A DNA stretch of 64,000 nt from NCBI RefSeq assembly GCF_001677475.2, contig NZ_CP015229.1, one strand, 5' to 3'. The stretch's first letter is position 1; each line of letters begins with the position of its first letter. Shown here piece by piece: positions 13,014-40,204 of this stretch. This DNA comes from Escherichia coli (GTDB lineage: Bacteria; Pseudomonadota; Gammaproteobacteria; Enterobacterales; Enterobacteriaceae). The notes below the pieces were generated by a model. That model did no database searches, had not been told where the DNA came from, and worked only from the letters and a program-made list of their open reading frames with translations. The translations under genes were made by a program, and so were the position numbers.

Positions 13014-13542
13014 ATTAATTCATGTTGCCCGTCGGGAGTTGCAACTCGACGATGACACTTACCGCGCCTTTCTGGTGCAGTGCACAGGCAAGACCAGTTG
13101 CCGCGAGCTGACCTTCGCACAACTGGAACTGGTGCTCGATGCCATGAAAGAGCGCGGTTTTAAGAAGCAGAAAAAACATCCCCGCCGTCGCTTTAAGGGG
13201 CATGTCACACCACGCGAGAAGATTTACAAAATCTGGCAGCAGATGTTTCTTGATGGTTTCGTCTCCGATATCAGCGACGCCGCGCTGGACAAATACGTTG
13301 AACGCCTGACGGCCAGACGTAATGGCGGTCAGGGTGTTTCCACGCTGGTCTGGTGTCACGGGGAATCGTTGCAGGTTGTGCTCGAAACGCTCAAGCAGTG
13401 GCACATGCGCTGCATCCGGGAAGCCTTTGCCCGACATGGTGTGCCGTTACCTGCAAGCCCATCCGGGCGGGAACTACGCGGATATGATGCACTGACCAGT
13501 GCATATGCCCGCGCACGAAACAGCGGGAGAATTGCTGTATGA
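12991..13542 (+). CDS. gemA: GemA-like (Mu gp16 / DUF1018) regulatory protein
   Basis: 183 aa directly upstream of mor, as in Mu; assignment from position and sequence recollection. Confidence 0.5.
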   Translation: MSRTSLIKLIHVARRELQLDDDTYRAFLVQCTGKTSCRELTFAQLELVLDAMKERGFKKQKKHPRRRFKGHVTPREKIYKIWQQMFLDGFVSDISDAALDKYVERLTARRNGGQGVSTLVWCHGESLQVVLETLKQWHMRCIREAFARHGVPLPASPSGRELRGYDALTSAYARARNSGRIAV

Positions 13543-13988
13543 AACAGATGAAAGAGCAGGATTTATTCGAAGACCTTCGGGACGACAGCGTTCTGGAATA
13601 TCTTCATGATTACCAGGAAAACACCGCTTATCCGGCGTTACTTTCTGAACTGAACGCACTGCTGCGTAAAGAGCTGGCCCGGATTGGCGCAGACCCTGCT
13701 CATTCCCTTGAGCTGGTTGTGGCGATTTGTCGCCATATCGGCGGGATGCAGGTTTATGTTCCGAGGGGGAATATTCTGGAGAATCTTGTCCGGGATATGC
13801 GTATCTGGCGTGATTTTAACGGTCATAATATTCCTGAACTGGTTCAGCGTTACGGGGTGACGTATAAAACCGTCTACAAGGCCATCAAACGGATGCGACG
13901 TCTGGAGCGCAATAAATACCAGCCGGATTTGTTTTACCCCTCCCCGAACCTGCCTCACCCCGTTCGTCGTCCACCACGACGCCCTTAA
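13539..13988 (+). CDS. mor: Mor/C-family transcriptional activator (middle operon regulator)
   Basis: 149 aa; Mor/C-family HTH region (...VYVPRGNILENLVRDMRIWRDFNGHNIPELVQRYGVTYKTVYKAIKRMRR); location before the lysis/late genes. Confidence 0.7.
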   Translation: MKQMKEQDLFEDLRDDSVLEYLHDYQENTAYPALLSELNALLRKELARIGADPAHSLELVVAICRHIGGMQVYVPRGNILENLVRDMRIWRDFNGHNIPELVQRYGVTYKTVYKAIKRMRRLERNKYQPDLFYPSPNLPHPVRRPPRRP

Positions 13989-13993
13989 TCAAT

Positions 13994-14018
13994 GAAGCCG
14001 GTAAATCCGGCTTTTTTT
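13994..14018 (+). terminator. Intrinsic terminator-like hairpin GAAGCCGG-TAAAT-CCGGCTTTTTTT after mor
   Basis: GC-rich inverted repeat followed by a T-run, directly after the mor stop. Confidence 0.6.
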
Positions 14019-21726: not shown

Positions 21727-21753
21727 GTGAAGCCGGTAAATCCGGCTTTTTTT
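21727..21753 (+). terminator. Second copy of the GAAGCCGG-TAAAT-CCGGCTTTTTTT hairpin
   Basis: Same hairpin plus T-run as at 13994-14018, in the F-to-I intergenic region. Confidence 0.55.
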
Positions 21754-28074: not shown

Positions 28075-28160
28075 CCTGTCTCAGCGATTCAGCATTCAGT
28101 ACCTGGAACAGCTGCCCCTGTGGCAGCTGTTCCGTCTGATAAAGCAACTGGAGAAACAGC

Positions 28161-31300: not shown

Positions 31301-32370
31301 TGGGATCCGTGATTCTTACCGTTGACGGCAAACTGTGGGAAGGCTGGACGGAAATGTCTGTCAGTCGTTCCCTGAAGGCGATTGCCGGTGAGTTTGAGCT
31401 CAGTGTAACAACCCGCTGGTCATCGGCGGCACCGCGCGTGATTCGTGAGGGGCAACCCTGCACGGTCAGGCTGGGTGCAGATACCGTGCTGACGGGGTAT
31501 ATCGATGATTTTATCCCCAGCTATGACGCAAACAGCGTGGAGATTCGCGTCATGGGGCGCGATAAAACCGGCGACCTGGTGGACTGCTCTGTGGTGCATT
31601 CGTCCGGGAAATGGAAAGGCGTGCGGCTTGAACAGGTGGCGGCTGATGTCTGCCGCCCGTTCGGGATAACCGTCATCACGGAAAACCCGACCGGGGAGGC
31701 GTTTGCGTCCGTTGTTCTGGAACAGGGTGAAACGGGTTTTGAACTGCTCGACCGGCTGGCAAAACAGCGCGGCGTTCTGCTGACGTCTGACGGGGCGGGT
31801 AATCTGATTATCACCCGCGCCTCTTCCGTTCGCGCGGGCGTGTCACTGGTGCTGGGAAAAAATATCCTCGCCGCCCGTGGGCGCTTCAGCTGGCGGGAGC
31901 GTAACAGTCAGTACATCATCAAGGGCACCACCAGTGCCGGTGGCAGAGTGTGGGACAGCCAGCCTGCCCCGATGGTGGGCGGTCGCCAGTACATCATCGA
32001 AGACTCTGAAATTAACCGTTACCGTCCGCGCATTCTGGTCAATGAAGACAGCCTGACCGTGGGCGGGGCCAGCATTCGCGGAGAATGGTATAAAGCCCGG
32101 ATGCTGGGAGAGGCCCGCACGACGGAAATCACGGTGGCAGGCTGGCGCGAACAGGGCGACAGCGGTCCGCTGTGGCAGACCAACCGCCTTGTCGATATCG
32201 ACGACAGCATTCAGAACCTGAAAACCACCTGGCTGATATCCGGGGTGACCTGGACGGATGGCGCACAAGGGCGGATGACGGTTCTGGCGCTGGTTCCGCC
32301 TGAATCACTGGATATGCCGGAAATGAAAGCGAAGACGAAGAAAACAAAGGCGGTGGCCACATGGGATTAA
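31300..32370 (+). CDS. Tail/baseplate hub protein (Mu P-like, late control D-like)
   Basis: 356 aa; gene order. Confidence 0.55.
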   Translation: MGSVILTVDGKLWEGWTEMSVSRSLKAIAGEFELSVTTRWSSAAPRVIREGQPCTVRLGADTVLTGYIDDFIPSYDANSVEIRVMGRDKTGDLVDCSVVHSSGKWKGVRLEQVAADVCRPFGITVITENPTGEAFASVVLEQGETGFELLDRLAKQRGVLLTSDGAGNLIITRASSVRAGVSLVLGKNILAARGRFSWRERNSQYIIKGTTSAGGRVWDSQPAPMVGGRQYIIEDSEINRYRPRILVNEDSLTVGGASIRGEWYKARMLGEARTTEITVAGWREQGDSGPLWQTNRLVDIDDSIQNLKTTWLISGVTWTDGAQGRMTVLALVPPESLDMPEMKAKTKKTKAVATWD

Positions 32371-32897
32371 ACGCCATTGCCCGCCGTCTGCGACTGATGG
32401 TTGACCGTGCCATTGTCCGCATGGTGTCTGACAGTCTGGAGCGGCAGAACCTGCAAATCCAGACGCTGGCAGATGCCACCGACGACGACGTGGAACGCTT
32501 CCAGAACTACGGTTTTACATCCGTGCCGCCGGAAGGTTCTGAAGCCATAGTGCTGGCCGTTAGCGGGCGGCGTGACGGGCTGGTTGCCATCGCGGTGGAG
32601 GACAAGCGATGTCGCCCGAAAGGGCTGTCCCCCGGCGACGTCCGGCTGTATCACCAGGACGGCAAATCACATATCACGTTAAGGAAAGGCGGAATTATTG
32701 AAATCACAGGGGAACAATTAAACGTTTCAGGGAAAACGGTAAATCTCACCGCCGACGAATTACTGGCTATAAATGCAGGAAATATGAAATTCGTCGGTCC
32801 CTGTGAGTTTACTGAAGATGTCAGAATCAACGGCAAATCTTTCAGCGAACACATTCATAAGGACGGCGACAATGAGAATACATCACCGCCCGTATGA
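32361..32897 (+). CDS. Baseplate assembly protein V-like (spike; Mu gp45-like)
   Basis: 178 aa; gene order within baseplate cluster. Confidence 0.55.
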   Translation: MGLNAIARRLRLMVDRAIVRMVSDSLERQNLQIQTLADATDDDVERFQNYGFTSVPPEGSEAIVLAVSGRRDGLVAIAVEDKRCRPKGLSPGDVRLYHQDGKSHITLRKGGIIEITGEQLNVSGKTVNLTADELLAINAGNMKFVGPCEFTEDVRINGKSFSEHIHKDGDNENTSPPV

Positions 32898-33346
32898 CGA
32901 CAGGAATCCGCTGGAATAACATGCTCTCACGGGGTGACATCACCGTCACCCATAACGGCCTCTCACTGGATGAGGGGCTGGTCACTCAGGTTCTTATCTG
33001 CCTTTTCACCGATGCCCGTGCTGATGACGATGATGTCATTCCTGATGGTTCCGGCGACCCGCGCGGATGGCCGGGCGACACGTACAGCGATTTTTCGTGG
33101 GGTTCCCGCCTGTGGCTGCTTGAGCGCGAAAAACTGACGGAAGATGTCCGCCTGCGCGTGGAAGACTACGCGCGGTTGTCCATGCAACCGCTGCTGCGGG
33201 CCGGTTACGCCCGTAACGCCACCGTCACGGCCAGAATCATCGTCCCTGACCGTATTGCCTTTCAGGTGGTGTTAACCCGCCCGGACAAAACCACGCTCAC
33301 AATTGAAATCACCCGCCGATGGGAGGCCACCATTAATGCCGTATGA
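32894..33346 (+). CDS. Baseplate protein (Mu gp46-like)
   Basis: 150 aa; gene order. Confidence 0.5.
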   Translation: MTTGIRWNNMLSRGDITVTHNGLSLDEGLVTQVLICLFTDARADDDDVIPDGSGDPRGWPGDTYSDFSWGSRLWLLEREKLTEDVRLRVEDYARLSMQPLLRAGYARNATVTARIIVPDRIAFQVVLTRPDKTTLTIEITRRWEATINAV

Positions 33347-34412
33347 AATCCCCACGCTGGGCAAACTGATTGCCGACGGCGAAAAAGATATTGCGTATGA
33401 ACTCGGCCTGCAAAAGCTGCCGCCTGTCAGTGTTGAGCAGGCACTGAACGTGTCATTCAGCAGTCAGGTCCGGGATTTATACGACCATCAGAGCTGGATT
33501 AAGGACCAGATAATTCCGTCCACCGCGTCTGATGATGAAACCATTATCAAAACAGCAACGTATGAAGGGGTTATCCGCAAGCAGGCCACCTTTGCCAGCG
33601 GGCCGGTGACCTTCACCAGTCAGTCCCCCATTCCGGCAGAAACCCGGATGCAGTACGACACGAATCAGGTGTATCAGGTACTCACATCCGGCGAGGTACA
33701 GAACGGCGAGGTCACTGTCATCGTGCAGGCTGAAGAAGCCGGTGTTGCGGGCAATCTTGCTGCCGGTGCCGTGCTGACCCTGCTGTCCCCGTTGCCCGGA
33801 ACGGGCAGCACAGGCGCGGTGACTGAAAGTGGCATCACCGGTGGCGCAGATATCGAATCCATCGCAGAGCTGCTGGACCGTCTGCTGTATATGCGCCGCA
33901 ATCCCCCGGTGGGCGGTGCACTGCATGATTACGTCATCTGGGCGCGTGAAGTGCCGGGTGTCAGCCGCGCGTGGGCATGGGATGCGTGGCACGGCCCCGG
34001 CACGGTCGGGCTGGCATGGCTTTATGATGACCGTGAAGACATTATCCCCACACGGGACGACCTGAAGACAATGGAGCAGTATCTGTTCTGCCACAAACAC
34101 CCGGCCACCGGCGTGATGGTGGGCAAACCGGGCGGCATCGAGGTCTGGCCGGTGCAGGTCAGGCTGAAGAAGCTCGACCTGTCCATCCGTCTGACACCGG
34201 ACAGCCAGGCGAACAGGAACGCCGTCCGGGCAAACCTGACCGCATTACAGAAAACGCTGGCCCCCGGTCAGATGCTGCCGGTGTCCTCGCTGCGCACGTC
34301 CATCGGTATGACGTCCGGTATCACGGATTACTTCCTCAACATCGGGGAAGACACCACCAGTGATGTGGATGAGCTTATCACTATCGGGGAGGTGACATGG
34401 CTCACAGCGTGA
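33336..34412 (+). CDS. Baseplate J-like protein (Mu gp47-like)
   Basis: ATG 33336 overlapping previous stop; about 358 aa. Confidence 0.55.
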   Translation: MPYEIPTLGKLIADGEKDIAYELGLQKLPPVSVEQALNVSFSSQVRDLYDHQSWIKDQIIPSTASDDETIIKTATYEGVIRKQATFASGPVTFTSQSPIPAETRMQYDTNQVYQVLTSGEVQNGEVTVIVQAEEAGVAGNLAAGAVLTLLSPLPGTGSTGAVTESGITGGADIESIAELLDRLLYMRRNPPVGGALHDYVIWAREVPGVSRAWAWDAWHGPGTVGLAWLYDDREDIIPTRDDLKTMEQYLFCHKHPATGVMVGKPGGIEVWPVQVRLKKLDLSIRLTPDSQANRNAVRANLTALQKTLAPGQMLPVSSLRTSIGMTSGITDYFLNIGEDTTSDVDELITIGEVTWLTA

Positions 34413-34981
34413 CGGAATGGCTGACCGCGCTGCAACAGGTCATGCCACGGGGTAAGGCATGGCCGCGCGATAACGACGCGGATTTAAACCGTTTTTTAAG
34501 GGCGCTTGCAGAGCGTTTAACCCGCGTTGAATACGACGCCTCGCGCCTGCATGTGGAGATGCGACCGGAAACCACGCTCCAGCTGCTGCCGGAGTGGGAG
34601 CAATATCTGGCACTGCCGGAATGCGGAATTGCCGCCACCACAACGGAAGCCCGCCGCCGGGCCGTGGTGGAGAAATACCGCCGCAAAGGCGGGCTGGCAA
34701 CCTGGCAGATTGAAGCCGCTGCGGCGGCGCTGGGCTTCACCATTAAGGTGACGGCCGTTCTGCCGCACCACTGCCTGCGTGACTGCATGTACCCGCTGCA
34801 TCCGGCACGGTATCGCTGGCTGCTGAAAGTGGAAGTCCCGGACAACGATGCCGGGCGGTTTACCTGTATTGATGACGTCATGACGCCATTAATCAGCGAA
34901 CGCACCCGCGAGCTGGAATGCCTGCTGAAGCATTACCGGCTGGCGGGTACGGAATATGAATATTATTACACCGGAGAATAA
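34397..34981 (+). CDS. Tail protein (Mu gp48-like)
   Basis: 194 aa, last baseplate-cluster gene before the tail fibre. Confidence 0.5.
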   Translation: MAHSVTEWLTALQQVMPRGKAWPRDNDADLNRFLRALAERLTRVEYDASRLHVEMRPETTLQLLPEWEQYLALPECGIAATTTEARRRAVVEKYRRKGGLATWQIEAAAAALGFTIKVTAVLPHHCLRDCMYPLHPARYRWLLKVEVPDNDAGRFTCIDDVMTPLISERTRELECLLKHYRLAGTEYEYYYTGE

Positions 34982-34984
34982 TTT

Positions 34985-35764
34985 ATGTTTCACGTGGACA
35001 ATAATACGGGTGTGCCTGTTATGCCGCCTGTTGCGGCTGAATTAAGCAAAACAACGCTTTATTTCACCGAAGGCGGGAACGGTATTCCAGCCACTTATCC
35101 AGGACCAGACTGGTTTAATATTATTCAGTCTGAACTGCTGGAAATTCTCCGGCAGGCAAATATCAAACCGGATAAAAATACCACCAACCAGATTATGACG
35201 GCGCTGAAAAAACTGTTTATTACGAACAGTGGTTCAGCCGGAGCTATTGCTGGATTAACCGGTGAGAATAATACGTTCCCGTATTTTACCGGCGAAGACG
35301 AAATGGCATTAACGCCGCTCAGTGCGTTTGTGCGCGGCATTCTTGGTAAAACCACAGCCGATGAAATTATTGATGCACTTTCATTACGTGACACGGTAAA
35401 TAAAGCCAGTAGTGCCGTACCGAATACCCGCAGGGTCAACGGCATGGCCCTGACTTCAGATATCACCATCAGCAACATCAGCGGCAACGCCGGAACGGCA
35501 ACCCGACTTCAGACGGCCCGCAGGATTAACAATGTGCTGTTTGATGGTTCCGGTGATATCACAATCCCTGCCGGGATGAGTCAGTCCACAGCGGATGCGC
35601 GTTATGTTCAGAACGTTCAGTTAGGTGCGCAGGTACAGGGGGGATCTCAGGCACCCACAGGGTGTGTGGTCACCTTTGTTGATGGCGGCGAGAAGATGGA
35701 ATATATCCAGTATAAACCCCTGCAAATTTATATTAACGGCGCATGGCGCACGATATCCGGTTAA
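34985..35764 (+). CDS. Tail fibre protein (short; S-like)
   Basis: 259 aa; followed by an assembly chaperone gene. Confidence 0.55.
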   Translation: MFHVDNNTGVPVMPPVAAELSKTTLYFTEGGNGIPATYPGPDWFNIIQSELLEILRQANIKPDKNTTNQIMTALKKLFITNSGSAGAIAGLTGENNTFPYFTGEDEMALTPLSAFVRGILGKTTADEIIDALSLRDTVNKASSAVPNTRRVNGMALTSDITISNISGNAGTATRLQTARRINNVLFDGSGDITIPAGMSQSTADARYVQNVQLGAQVQGGSQAPTGCVVTFVDGGEKMEYIQYKPLQIYINGAWRTISG

Positions 35765-35778
35765 TTAAGGAGAAAATA

Positions 35779-36309
35779 ATGGAACTCAGAAACGTCACGC
35801 GTTATTACCCTGAAGATATGCCTTATGGTGAAAATATTCAGTATTTCCGTAGTGAAGACGGGCAGGATTTTTATGAATCGCTGGATAAATTCACGAAGAA
35901 ATACAAATTGTGTATTCACCCGGAAACCGGCGTGATTTATTCGATGGCAGAAGACGTGTCCCGTCTTTATCCGGCGGGGTTCACTATTGTGGAAGTGGAC
36001 GAACTGCCGGAGGGTTTTGGCATTGAAGCCTGCTGGTATTACCGGGATGGCGAAGTGCTGCCGGTTCCGGTTGATTATTCGCAACTGGCAGAAAAGCAAC
36101 GCCAGCGTCTTCTGGCTGAAGTCAGGGACATCACCTCCGACTGGCGAACCGAGCTGGAGTTGGGCACCATCAGCGACGATGACAAAGCCCGTCTTACGCA
36201 GTGGATGGCATATATCAAAGCGGTGAAGGCGCTGGATTTAAGCACCGTTACTGATGAAGCCTCCTTTAATGCCATCAACTGGCCGGAGCGTCCCGATGCC
36301 GCAGCTTAA
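35779..36309 (+). CDS. Tail fibre assembly protein (Tfa/U-like)
   Basis: ATG 35779 with AAGGAGAAAA RBS; about 176 aa; follows a fibre gene. Confidence 0.6.
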   Translation: MELRNVTRYYPEDMPYGENIQYFRSEDGQDFYESLDKFTKKYKLCIHPETGVIYSMAEDVSRLYPAGFTIVEVDELPEGFGIEACWYYRDGEVLPVPVDYSQLAEKQRQRLLAEVRDITSDWRTELELGTISDDDKARLTQWMAYIKAVKALDLSTVTDEASFNAINWPERPDAAA

Positions 36310-38545
36310 AGGTGTGATTAAAACGCCCACGGGAGAACCGCTGGGCGGCGCAACCATTACTCTGACCTCCCTGCACAACCGTGCAGGGATCCTGAAAGGT
36401 GTTTTCAGCCACGTCACCACACAGAGCGGGGAGTACGACTTCCCCGTTCTGCCGGGTGTGTACAGCGTTCGCCTGACACAAAGCACACAGCGCCTTTCAG
36501 AAATCGGTGTCATCCGCGTTTATGAAGATTCACAGGACGGTTCGCTGAATGATTTTCTGGGTGCAACCGATATTGACCTGCGCCCGGAAGCCCTGAAGAA
36601 ATTCGAGGAGCTGGCGCAACAGGCGCAGCAAAGCGCGGAAGAAGCCGGAGAGCACGCGGACGCGGCTGAACAGGCCCGCCAGGATACAGAAACCCTCGCC
36701 GGGGAAATACAGCAGGATGCAGAAGAAATTGCAGGCAATGTGCAGAAAGCTGAAGAGCTTGCCTCTGAAACCAGTCAGAATGCAGCCCGCGCAGAGCAGG
36801 CTGTCAAGGATGCCGACACGATAGTCCGGAAAGCGGTCGATAAACTTGCTGATGCTGCAACGCTGAGCGGCGAGGCAAAAGCCAGTGCCGGAGCTGCCGC
36901 ACAAAGCGAACAGAATGCGGAAAATCACGCTGATAATGCAGCACAAAGCGCACAGCAGACCGCGCAGGATGTGCAGGCAACGGTCACAGCCCGCAGTGAT
37001 GCGGAACGTTTTGCGGGTGAGGCAGAAAACAGCGCACAGTCATCAGGCACAGCGCGGGACGAATCAGTCGATGCCGCCGAACGCGCCCGCCTTTATCATA
37101 ATGCCGCATCATCAGCTGCAACCAGCGCGGAAAATGCAGCAAATGCTGCACTCGGGCATGAAAACAGCGCCGCCGAATACGCCCGACAGGCTAAAGCCAG
37201 CCAGGATGCAGGTGCAGACAATGCGCAGGAAGCGAAACAGTACAGGGATGAGGCGCAGCAGATAGTTGATGACCTGAATGCAACAAATGCCTCCACGACA
37301 GAAAAAGGTCTGGTGCAACTGTGTAGTGATACGGACAACGACAGCGAGGAACTGGCTGCCACGCCAAAGGCTGTCAAAACCGTCATGGACGAGACGAAAA
37401 CAAAAGCGTCACTGGACAGCCCGGCTTTCACCGGCACCCCAACCACCCCAACCCCACCGGATGATGCCGCCGGTCTGGAAGCAGCGAACGCAGCGTTTGT
37501 GCGCAAACTGCTTGCTGCGCTGGTTGGTTCATCGCCGGAAGTTCTGGACACCCTGAACGAGCTGGCAGCGGCGCTGGGCAATGACCCGAACTTTGCGACG
37601 ACAATCACAAACGCGCTGGCAGGCAAACAACCGCTTAATGACGTCTTAACGGCAATCAGCGCACTGACGCAACGGGCAGATAATCTTCTGTACTTCAATA
37701 CAGACGGGAATGCCTCACTGTCTCCGCTGTCAGAGAAGGCCCGCGCATTACTGGCGCATGACACGGCTGAAGCCATGCGCACGGAGCTTGAGCTGAGCGC
37801 GGCTGCGACGATGGAACCCCAGAGTGATATCCGTGACCGCACACCGGGCAGGCTGGCCCTGTCCGGGATGTATGGGTTTGGACAGGCATTCACCAGCGCC
37901 GAAGCTCTGTCATTTAACGGACAGGCTGATTTCGTTATATGGCTGCAGACAGTCACACCGGGGCGTTATGCGGTCAGTATTGCGGACTCCTCCACGCTGC
38001 TGAAGGGGACCACGAAATTTAACGGTATCATTGATGTGATGTGGTCACCGTCTGATAACGACGAATCAGACACGGCGCGTAAATTCAAAACGCTGCTGTA
38101 CTACAACCAGTATTACGAGGATGAGCACAGCATACATTGTATGCGTTATCGCTACAGTGGTAACAGCTGGAATGCAACATCAAGCCTTATTGTGTATGAC
38201 GGCAACTCCCTGGCATATCTGATGTCCTCAACCGCCGGTAATGGTCCGTTCTCATATTACCAATACCCGGCCGTCGGTGTGCCGATTATGGCGGTATATC
38301 AGGGAGAAAGTTTTGGTGAAAATGCTTCTCTGGGACTCGGTGATACTGTGCCGGGTTCCCGTCTTGGTCCTCTGGCCATGAGTGCACAGGTTAGTGATAC
38401 AGGGACATACGCATCCTCACCGCAGGTTGTGATTGGCGGTGCCGGTGAATACAACTTCCCCGGTCGTTACACGGCGCTTTCGGGCCTGGGTAACAATTAT
38501 GGTACTCAGCGTGGCTTTATCGGTCTTTTTGTACGCATTGAGTAA
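36296..38545 (+). CDS. Long tail fibre protein with Ala/Glu/Gln-rich coiled-coil repeats (side-tail-fibre-like)
   Basis: ATG 36296; about 749 aa; long low-complexity helical repeat region (residues ~110-330) and a distinct C-terminal domain. Confidence 0.6.
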   Translation: MPQLKGVIKTPTGEPLGGATITLTSLHNRAGILKGVFSHVTTQSGEYDFPVLPGVYSVRLTQSTQRLSEIGVIRVYEDSQDGSLNDFLGATDIDLRPEALKKFEELAQQAQQSAEEAGEHADAAEQARQDTETLAGEIQQDAEEIAGNVQKAEELASETSQNAARAEQAVKDADTIVRKAVDKLADAATLSGEAKASAGAAAQSEQNAENHADNAAQSAQQTAQDVQATVTARSDAERFAGEAENSAQSSGTARDESVDAAERARLYHNAASSAATSAENAANAALGHENSAAEYARQAKASQDAGADNAQEAKQYRDEAQQIVDDLNATNASTTEKGLVQLCSDTDNDSEELAATPKAVKTVMDETKTKASLDSPAFTGTPTTPTPPDDAAGLEAANAAFVRKLLAALVGSSPEVLDTLNELAAALGNDPNFATTITNALAGKQPLNDVLTAISALTQRADNLLYFNTDGNASLSPLSEKARALLAHDTAEAMRTELELSAAATMEPQSDIRDRTPGRLALSGMYGFGQAFTSAEALSFNGQADFVIWLQTVTPGRYAVSIADSSTLLKGTTKFNGIIDVMWSPSDNDESDTARKFKTLLYYNQYYEDEHSIHCMRYRYSGNSWNATSSLIVYDGNSLAYLMSSTAGNGPFSYYQYPAVGVPIMAVYQGESFGENASLGLGDTVPGSRLGPLAMSAQVSDTGTYASSPQVVIGGAGEYNFPGRYTALSGLGNNYGTQRGFIGLFVRIE

Positions 38546-38559
38546 TGAGGAAATCAGGC

Positions 38560-39135
38560 ATGAAAATCAGAGCGGTGAAAGGTATCAGAAACGCACATTA
38601 TCTTGAAAATGGTGCGGTTGACTGCGAGGTGTTATTTGAAGGTGAAACGGAGTTCGCCCTGTATACTGCCATACAGGATGATATGGCCCCGACAGGCCAG
38701 CACATCTGGCAGGAGCTGCAAAGCGGGAAATGGGGCGAAATCGCCCCGTTCACCGTCACGCCGGAACTTATTGCAGCGGCAAAGGATGCCAAAAGGCGGG
38801 AAATTGAGGCATGGCGCGACAGTCAGGAAAACGTTGAGTTTATTTTCACGTTTGATGGCCGTCGTTTTGATGGCGGAAAAACCTCGCAGTCACGCCTTGC
38901 CCCCGTGGTTGCAGCAGCGCAGGCCGGACTGCTTCCGGAGGGATTTTTCTGGACTGATGCGGATAATAACAACGTCGTACTGACCAGGGAGAAACTTATT
39001 GCGCTGAACGATGCCATGATGGTGGCCATGGTGACGGAGGGCTTTAAAATCCACGAACGCCAGCGCGAGATGAAAGAGCAACTTTCCCTGCTGTCCACAC
39101 TGAGCGATATAAGAGCGTTAACGCCCGGTTATTAA
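38560..39135 (+). CDS. Tail fibre assembly protein (second Tfa)
   Basis: ATG 38560 (alternative ATG 38545 right after the fibre stop); about 191 aa downstream of the long fibre gene. Confidence 0.5.
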   Translation: MKIRAVKGIRNAHYLENGAVDCEVLFEGETEFALYTAIQDDMAPTGQHIWQELQSGKWGEIAPFTVTPELIAAAKDAKRREIEAWRDSQENVEFIFTFDGRRFDGGKTSQSRLAPVVAAAQAGLLPEGFFWTDADNNNVVLTREKLIALNDAMMVAMVTEGFKIHERQREMKEQLSLLSTLSDIRALTPGY

Positions 39136-39158
39136 GTCATCATTTTGTATAGTTTATA

Positions 39159-39257
39159 ACGATCGATACAATCGTATCGATCGTCAGTTTGCATCATCTG
39201 TGATTAAATACCCTGGCCCTCAGGGCTGTCGTATCTGGTTAATACACAGGTGGGATC
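39159..39257 (+). promoter_or_regulatory. com-mom upstream control region with GATC-containing inverted repeat
   Basis: Inverted repeat ACGATCGATAC/GTATCGATCGT (39159-39184) carrying two GATC sites, a third GATC at 39254-39257 abutting the com ATG. Confidence 0.45.
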
Positions 39258-39443
39258 ATGGATGCTGTTCGTTGTAAAAACTGCAATAAATTGCTGTTTA
39301 AAGGAAGTTTTAAGCATATAGAAATCAAATGCCCTCGTTGTAAACGTTACATTGTCATGTCGAGTGCCCGGGAGCATCCCACGGAGCTGTATTGTGGGAA
39401 AAGAGAAGAAATCACGCATCCTTACAAAACCCTGCGTTATTGA
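39258..39443 (+). CDS. com: Com zinc-finger translational activator of mom
   Basis: 61 aa; [10 protein letters not shown]...CPRCKR four-Cys zinc finger closely resembling Mu Com; overlaps the mom 5' end. Confidence 0.8.
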
Positions 39444-40089
39444 GTATGAAGGCCGTATTGTCGGCTATGGTTCAAGGGAACTGCGCGTTGAAACCATATC
39501 CTGCTGGCTGGCCCGCACAATCATTCAGACAAAGCACTATTCCCGCCGTTTTGTGAATAACTCCTGGTTGCATCTGGGGGTATTCAGCGGACGTGATCTG
39601 GTTGGCGTTCTCCAGTGGGGATACGCCCTTAATCCCAACTCAGGGCGTCGGGTCGTGCTGGAAACGGATAACCGGGGCTATATGGAACTGAACCGCATGT
39701 GGTTACACGACGACATGCCCCGCAACTCTGAATCACGGGCTATCAGCTACGCACTGAAAACCATCAGGTTACTGTATCCATCAGTGGAGTGGGTTCAGTC
39801 CTTTGCAGACGAACGCTGCGGACGTGCAGGTGTTGTGTATCAGGCATCTAATTTTGATTTTATTGGTAGCCATGAAAGCACGTTCTACGAGCTGGACGGC
39901 GAGTGGTATCACGAGATAACGATGAACGCGATTAAGCGTGGAGGACAACGAGGCGAGTATTTGCGGGCTAATAAGGAGCGGGCGGTGGTACACAAATTTA
40001 ATCAGTATCGCTACATCAGATTCCTGAACAAGCGCGCAAAAAAGCGATTAAATACCAAGCTATTCAGGATTCAGCCATACCCGAAGTGA
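39394..40089 (+). CDS. mom: Mom DNA-modification protein (anti-restriction)
   Basis: Frame open from 39352; start placed at GTG 39394 (231 aa, start uncertain); last gene before the prophage right end as in Mu. Confidence 0.7.
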
Positions 40090-40154: not shown

Positions 40155-40204
40155 GTTTTCGCATTTATCGTGAAACGTTTTCGCGTTTTTCGTGCGCCGC
40201 TTCA
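40155..40204. repeat. Prophage right terminus (Mu attR-like transposase binding sites, ends ...GCGCCGCTTCA)
   Basis: Reverse complement reads TGAAGCGGCGCACGAAAAACGCGAAAACGTTTCACGATAAATGCGAAAAC, nearly identical to my recollection of the canonical Mu right end. Confidence 0.7.

Follow-up and report, generated by a model that had tools for sequence, protein, structure and literature searches.

What controls the com-mom genes at the right end of a Mu-like prophage of Escherichia coli, and does the GATC-bearing palindrome in front of them take part in that control? The window, i.e., the whole stretch of E. coli DNA analyzed here (64,000 nucleotides; 64 kb), contains a Mu-like transposable prophage whose right end has Mu-type terminal repeats ending at about position 40203. 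Beyond this point, the sequence matches the E. coli chromosome at 99.3% and adjoins a type VI secretion vgrG gene. The early region of the prophage is Mu-like, and so are com-mom, its final two genes. The first, com (39258 to 39443, plus strand), encodes a 61-aa zinc-ribbon translational activator of mom (Pfam PF10122, Zn_ribbon_Com; E = 2e-7), and it is followed by mom (39394 to 40089, plus strand; Pfam PF25680, Mom; E = 1e-75), the start of which was set by homology to the annotated GTG of Mu. DNA identity to Mu is 77% for com and 91% for mom. The gene 5' of com is a DUF4376 tail-fibre assembly gene with its stop codon at 39135, whereas the upstream neighbor of com in Mu is gin.

A com ribosome-binding site, AGGTGGG (39248 to 39254, plus strand), was read from the sequence and aligns with the annotated site of Mu. 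Around the mom start (39378 to 39398), a CCCAC...GTGGG stem is kept in Mu, with a different loop (ggagctgtatt in the window and ggagaaacatt in Mu). In Mu, Com acts on the mRNA in the region of this stem, and because the stem is conserved, Com-dependent translational control of mom is probably intact in the window prophage. The closest relative of the com upstream region is a 99.6% identical copy in E. coli RM9088, in which mom is truncated and an ISEc12/IS66 insertion cluster lies directly downstream.

The initial annotation described an inverted repeat upstream of com-mom and GATC sites at 39161, 39179, and 39254, and all of these were borne out. The repeat is perfect, with two 11-nt arms (39159 to 39169, ACGATCGATAC; 39174 to 39184, GTATCGATCGT) that are 100% complementary and enclose a 4-nt loop. 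A site search, together with alignments to Mu and to related prophages, places GATC1 at 39161 to 39164 and GATC2 at 39179 to 39182, each within a CGATCG and 18 bp apart, while the third site (39254 to 39257) stands directly before the com ATG. Taken alone, the repeat has only modest significance. Two loci of the window, versus 0.27 expected, carry a perfect inverted repeat that reaches 11 nt or more and whose loop does not exceed 10 nt, and 20 of 100 first-order Markov randomizations of the window sequence contained one or more such repeats. Furthermore, some of the symmetry follows automatically from the CGATCG cores, which read the same on both strands. The clustering of GATC sites was dropped as statistical evidence, as about ten other close GATC pairs exist in the window. 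With a repeat that is only mildly unusual and close GATC pairs that are no rarity, the argument for a real, albeit predicted, element draws on comparison with relatives, namely positional homology to Mu and invariance within the lineage, and on the top OxyR-consensus score.

Two further observations concern the window as a whole. Its sole other perfect short-loop inverted repeat (28105 to 28134, GGAACAGCTGCC / GGCAGCTGTTCC, 12-nt arms) sits in an 86-nt gap before a 621-aa tape-measure-like gene. GATC is under-represented across the whole window (157 sites versus 237 expected from shuffles) and is very sparse in the tail/tail-fibre region, where 2 sites were counted in the 7.8 kb just before the predicted operator (31304 to 39161).

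The GATC cluster of the Mu mom control region is bound by OxyR when it is unmethylated by Dam. Following the proposal of the initial annotation to compare the region with the Mu mom promoter, we used an alignment anchored on com that included Mu, SfMu, and D108. The arrangement ATAG-N8-CGATCG-N12-CGATCG is invariant in these three phages and in the window, so that the GATC spacing is 18 bp in all of them and the ATAG stands 12 nt upstream of GATC1, as in Mu. Positions 39149 to 39185, referred to below as the operator, align without a gap to positions 1370 to 1406 of the Mu sequence (L001), with 25 of 37 nucleotides identical (68%), including the ATAG and both CGATCG motifs. The flanks are essentially unalignable with Mu, at 42% identity over the 60 nt upstream and 50% over the 72 nt downstream to the com ATG. 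Thus, the operator forms an island of conservation. BLAST misses the upstream homology because the region is too diverged or too short: a megablast search of a phage collection gave a Mu match only from 39268 onward, and a sensitive blastn search of the same collection with 39100 to 39290 found nothing.

This comparison identifies the GATCs of the palindrome as positional homologs of Mu GATC1 and GATC2. When the Mu +1 is taken at about 7 nt after the TAAGAT -10 hexamer, the Mu elements lie at -99 (ATAG), -87 (GATC1), -69 (GATC2), and -56 (GATC3). The suggestion of a different site arrangement in the prophage therefore holds in part. The first two sites are placed exactly as in Mu (18 bp apart, both in CGATCG), while the third is changed and the promoter downstream is replaced; instead of three GATC sites with spacings of 18 and 13, the window has two, and the position at the +13 offset of Mu GATC3 (39192 to 39195) reads CATC and is lost as a Dam target. 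Digestion of a Mu Pmom fragment with PvuI releases an 18-bp piece, and transcription from Pmom is stated to be governed by Dam and OxyR (PMC3378877; for the latter, see also PMC2909390). The PvuI recognition site is CGATCG, and the published 18-bp release fits the Mu GATC1-GATC2 arrangement.

Every 37-mer of the window, on both strands, was scored against ATAGnTnnnAnCTAT-N7-ATAGnTnnnAnCTAT, which Toledano et al. reportedly gave as the OxyR binding-site consensus. In PMC2909390, the 3' end of the half-site reads differently. The operator (39149 to 39185), which contains both conserved GATCs, scored 14/20, the unique top score of the 64 kb on both strands; the consensus for OxyR is a degenerate one, and counting matches in this way predicts binding only crudely. 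Its left half-site (39149 to 39163) matches at 9 of 10 positions and is one of only two half-sites in the window to do so, while the right half-site is weak (5/10). The left half-site is nearer to the consensus than its Mu counterpart (9/10 versus 7/10). For the whole site, Mu scores 12/20 in the homologous register and 13/20 in its best register, and most members of the prophage lineage described below score only 12/20. Three of the four methylatable adenines of the operator fall on consensus-specified positions. The GATC1 adenine (39162) is on consensus position 14 (the A of CTAT), the adjacent thymine (39163), opposite the bottom-strand adenine, is on position 15, and the GATC2 adenine (39180) is on position 32. 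This placement appears to be what a methylation-sensitive contact would need.

The lineage set consists of 23 distinct sequences of the same upstream type, collected from E. coli genomes and viral contigs. The operator core is invariant in all 23 and follows the pattern GTATAG(T/A)TTAT(A/G)ACGATCGATA-NN-ATC(A/G)TATCGATCGTC, which is otherwise without variation. The variable columns inside the operator are confined to consensus positions 5, 10, 21, 22, and 26; the loop of the repeat contains positions 21 and 22, and the consensus leaves positions 5, 21, and 22 unspecified ("n"). In most members, the arms are 10 nt long and the loop measures 6 nt. In the sublineage of the window, two substitutions (positions 10 and 26) lengthen the repeat to 11 nt, and both are toward the OxyR consensus. 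Homology among the members starts just past the stop codon of whichever gene lies upstream (DUF4376, tail-fibre fragments, or a hydrolase). The invariance of the lineage is partly explained by shared descent among close relatives.

The same alignment bears on the sites downstream of the operator. CATC stands at the Mu GATC3 offset in 23/23 sequences. A short dyad, ATCA-N4-TGAT (39193 to 39204), was read from the lineage alignment and overlaps this CATC remnant. About 70% of the 23 sequences retain its arms, and its central 4 nt vary freely, a pattern that suggests a candidate protein-binding dyad. The GATC at 39254, which the initial annotation listed along with the palindrome, lies outside the operator, and it is probably incidental, because only 3 of the 23 relatives carry it; the others read GAATC, AAGTT, or AAATT.

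A wider scan covered 80 viral contigs that encode Mom relatives of 69 to 99% identity, and a tight GATC cluster was found upstream of com in 72 of them. The Mu-type spacing of 18 and 13 nt occurs at 23 loci, the single 18-nt spacing of the window type at 18 loci, and a single 13-nt spacing, corresponding to sites 2 and 3 only, at 26 loci; spacings of 19 and 13 or of 31 and 13 nt account for a few more. With equivalents assigned by the recurring 18- and 13-nt spacings, and not by locus-by-locus alignment, GATC2 is represented in every clustered arrangement, and either flanking site can be lost. In most of these loci, the best or a near-best OxyR-consensus match is at or beside the GATC cluster. 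The modules with the 13-nt spacing (26/80) resemble the window in that two of three sites are retained, including the GATC2 equivalent. However, they keep the equivalents of Mu GATC2 and GATC3 and have lost GATC1, whereas the window lineage keeps GATC1 and GATC2. Because two independent natural two-site forms exist, two sites would seem to suffice. The Mom proteins of the 13-nt modules (loci L101 to L130, viral contigs) are about 77 to 79% identical. The com ATG of these modules is only about 50 nt past the cluster, and hence their promoter layout must also differ from that of Mu.

Thus, the palindrome is likely to be the core of a Dam-methylation-sensitive OxyR operator that has the same origin as the Mu mom control element. 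With the GATCs at 39161 and 39179 in the unmethylated or hemimethylated state, host OxyR would occupy 39149 to 39185 and so keep com-mom off. Full methylation of both GATCs by Dam would exclude OxyR from the operator. We infer OxyR binding, methylation sensitivity, and repression of com-mom from the homology to Mu, the conservation in relatives, the OxyR-consensus match, and the E. coli host context. The Mu-like interplay of Dam and a repressor that the initial annotation had in mind is therefore supported at the sequence level, with the homologs of both GATC1 and GATC2 falling within the 37-mer of the window that best matches the OxyR consensus. The lost third GATC need not impair OxyR binding, because a change of GATC to CATC leaves the consensus positions untouched; it is the very substitution by which experimenters abolish methylation without disturbing them (PMC2909390; PMC4856963).

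The regulation of Mu mom by Dam and OxyR is a textbook example of methylation-dependent control, and a homolog of it is thus expected rather than surprising. What the comparison adds is that, over many com-mom modules, the operator persists as a conserved island in surroundings whose promoter and activator logic are replaced. The two natural two-GATC forms (sites 1 and 2; sites 2 and 3) offer natural variants for measuring the contribution of each site.

The four late promoters of Mu require the activator C, which binds a dyad centered at -43.5 (PMC2582627). The C dyad of Mu Pmom, TTATgccccaATAA, is followed by a T6 run. The corresponding stretch of the window, GCATCATCTGTGATTAAATACCCTGGCCCTCAGGGCTGTCGTATCTGG, is 12 nt shorter, and in the alignment with Mu, neither a C dyad (TTAT-N6-ATAA) nor a T-run was found between the operator and com. 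The place of the Mu C box and T6 spacer region is occupied by a GC-rich dyad, GCCCTCAGGGC (39216 to 39226), which reads GCCC-N3-GGGC across the lineage and is followed by no U-tract; no covariation at this dyad was seen in 14 lineage sequences. The C gene itself was not found in the prophage. A tblastn search with Mu C and Mor gave a single Mor-type gene (13539 to 13988), the product of which is 63% identical to Mor and 32% identical to C, and the same C-less layout with a single Mor-type gene exists in three other E. coli prophages of the lineage (L056, L057, and L058).

The Mor-type activator appears to have sites of its own. An exactly repeated 24-mer, AAGCCGGTAAATCCGGCTTTTTTT, is found at 13995 to 14018, before the lysis genes, and at 21730 to 21753, before the head protease gene. 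It closely resembles a dyad-containing element in the annotated middle-promoter region of Mu (AAGCCGGTTAATCCGGCTTTTTTT), and we read the two copies as putative boxes of the activator. Near com, no Mor box was found, either with the exact 24-mer, which is limited to 13995 and 21730, or with a relaxed pattern. The com upstream region was accordingly ruled out as a Mor box, the exact 24-mer being found elsewhere only, and so was the GC-rich dyad, on account of its arm spacing (GCCC-N3-GGGC versus GCCGG-N5-CCGGC). Because a single Mor-type activator with its own boxes is present and the C gene is absent, the lineage appears to run a two-tier, Mor-only cascade rather than a three-tier one. Within this cascade of a common E. 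coli prophage lineage, com-mom, with its cytotoxic anti-restriction function, appears to be left without a recognizable activator site.

From where, then, would com-mom be transcribed? A scan of 39136 to 39257 for sigma-70 promoters and for terminators found none. The best sigma-70-like hexamer pair in 39120 to 39262 is TTGTAT (39145 to 39150) and TACAAT (39167 to 39172), with a 16-nt spacer and 8 of 12 matches; it lies inside the operator and is below the threshold of the standard promoter scan. Three sources can be considered. (i) Downstream of the operator, com may be preceded by an activator-dependent promoter that is placed as in Mu but responds to another activator, a reading that we favor tentatively. 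A -10-like TATCTG is present at 39232 to 39237; its use would yield a short leader carrying the ribosome-binding site and would need some further activator. (ii) Another possible source is read-through from the tail-fibre operon upstream, which OxyR would block, because no terminator separates this operon from com. (iii) A weak sigma-70 promoter that overlaps the operator is a doubtful one. The weights are rough, and we infer them in this order, the downstream activator-dependent promoter before read-through and read-through before the overlapping promoter. CRP-like (TGTGA) and IHF-like matches at about 39199 to 39212 were inspected by eye and judged too weak. A separate observation concerns the leader RNA. 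In the predicted consensus fold, the C-run at 39211 to 39214, directly 5' of the GC-rich dyad, pairs with the G-run of the com Shine-Dalgarno sequence (39249 to 39254) and might be an anti-Shine-Dalgarno element; compensatory changes for this pairing were not seen.

Among the alternatives to an operator of the Mu kind, the one that survives best is an epigenetic switch of the agn43 type, in which a weak sigma-70 promoter inside the operator would need no C and lysogens would hold com-mom heritably ON or OFF through the competition of Dam and OxyR alone. The TTGTAT/TACAAT pair, with its 8 of 12 matches, would be this promoter, and its TAnnAT is kept in 23/23 lineage sequences. The absence of the C gene and of a C or Mor box at com agrees with such a switch, as does a left half-site stronger than that of Mu (9/10 versus 7/10), and agn43 itself uses a GATC-bearing OxyR site that overlaps its regulatory region (PMC13337833). 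However, the promoter match is weak and under the standard scan threshold, the TA..AT bases are equally explained by the repeat arm together with the ATAG-type element of OxyR sites, and 2 of the 23 sequences depart from the TTG. A prophage that is fully methylated would also incur a cost by expressing a cytotoxic function (PMC3378877). We regard such a switch as unlikely. The broader claim that com-mom is uncoupled from a late activator throughout a widespread C-less lineage and answers chiefly to the Dam/OxyR operator, whose target would be either an overlapping promoter or read-through transcription, seems to us quite unlikely. If it were true, Mom modification would be an epigenetically switched and possibly phase-variable lysogen trait, and not a strictly late lytic one.

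Alternatively, the GATC pair could be a vestige of a Mu-like ancestor that regulates nothing in the C-less lineage, com-mom being silent or merely cotranscribed with the tail-fibre genes. Such a reading would accommodate the lost C box and the lack of a terminator between the end of the upstream gene (39135) and com, and the close kinship of the lineage members means that the invariance could partly reflect recent descent. The operator is nevertheless conserved between two flanks that are either replaced or so diverged that their identity is near random, and the module boundary is immediately upstream of it although the neighboring genes differ. Moreover, at the specified positions 10 and 26, both substitutions of the window sublineage give the base of the OxyR consensus, and the GATC cluster recurs among Mom relatives of about 70 to 99% identity. 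On these grounds, a vestigial element is improbable, and a functional Dam/OxyR operator is the better reading.

Much less probable is a role of the palindrome as a hairpin, be it a terminator or an mRNA-stabilizing stem-loop at the end of the tail-fibre operon. An RNA stem of 11 bp with a 4-nt loop is predicted to form, and folding of the 165-nt region is more favorable than that of shuffled versions (z = -3.5). However, no U-tract follows the stem (sequence CAGTTTGCATC), and RNAalifold applied to 14 lineage sequences gave no compensatory pairs. The symmetry is largely a by-product of the two self-complementary CGATCG cores, and the Mu homolog of the palindrome has arms of only 7 nt and overlaps gin at the 3' end of its coding sequence. 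An intrinsic terminator was ruled out, since the stem is of mixed AT/GC composition and is followed by CAGTTTGC, with no U-tract, and since the terminator scan had no match at 39136 to 39257.

SeqA could be recruited by two neighboring hemimethylated GATCs, and the prophage encodes a Mor-family activator, so that a binder other than OxyR, either GATC-reading (SeqA) or phage-encoded (a Mor-type activator), might be imagined. This is very unlikely, however, as the 18-bp spacing should put the GATCs on different helical faces, poorly suited to SeqA, the Mor boxes consist of another sequence, an exactly repeated 24-mer to which no counterpart was found near com, and the OxyR-consensus match is the best in the window.

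Among known systems, agn43 and the Salmonella/P22 gtr and opvAB loci share the Dam/OxyR principle. At agn43 (Ag43), OxyR represses whatever its oxidation state, and Dam and OxyR compete for the site (PMC13337833; PMC4856963). The likeness to the window element is that a single OxyR site contains several GATCs, while agn43 differs in having three GATCs and a constitutive promoter and has no sequence homology with the element. Heritable ON/OFF switching has been shown for no mom operon (PMC2909390). The gtr and opvAB loci likewise have GATCs inside OxyR half-sites, and CATC substitutions in these switches remove methylation without disturbing the consensus (PMC2909390; PMC4856963). Their half-sites number three or four and are occupied alternatively, and activation by OxyR occurs there as well, whereas the window element is one 37-bp site.

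The closest system is the Mu mom control region itself. Both elements are directly upstream of com-mom in the same host species, with positional as well as sequence homology, both match the OxyR consensus, and the ATAG and the two CGATCG motifs 18 bp apart are identical. The differences are that Mu has a third GATC 13 bp downstream, where the window has CATC, and that Mu has the C activator, the C box, and the T6 run, whereas the window prophage is without all three. The element is thus a variant of a well-known regulatory element that, without activator C, stands before a different promoter.
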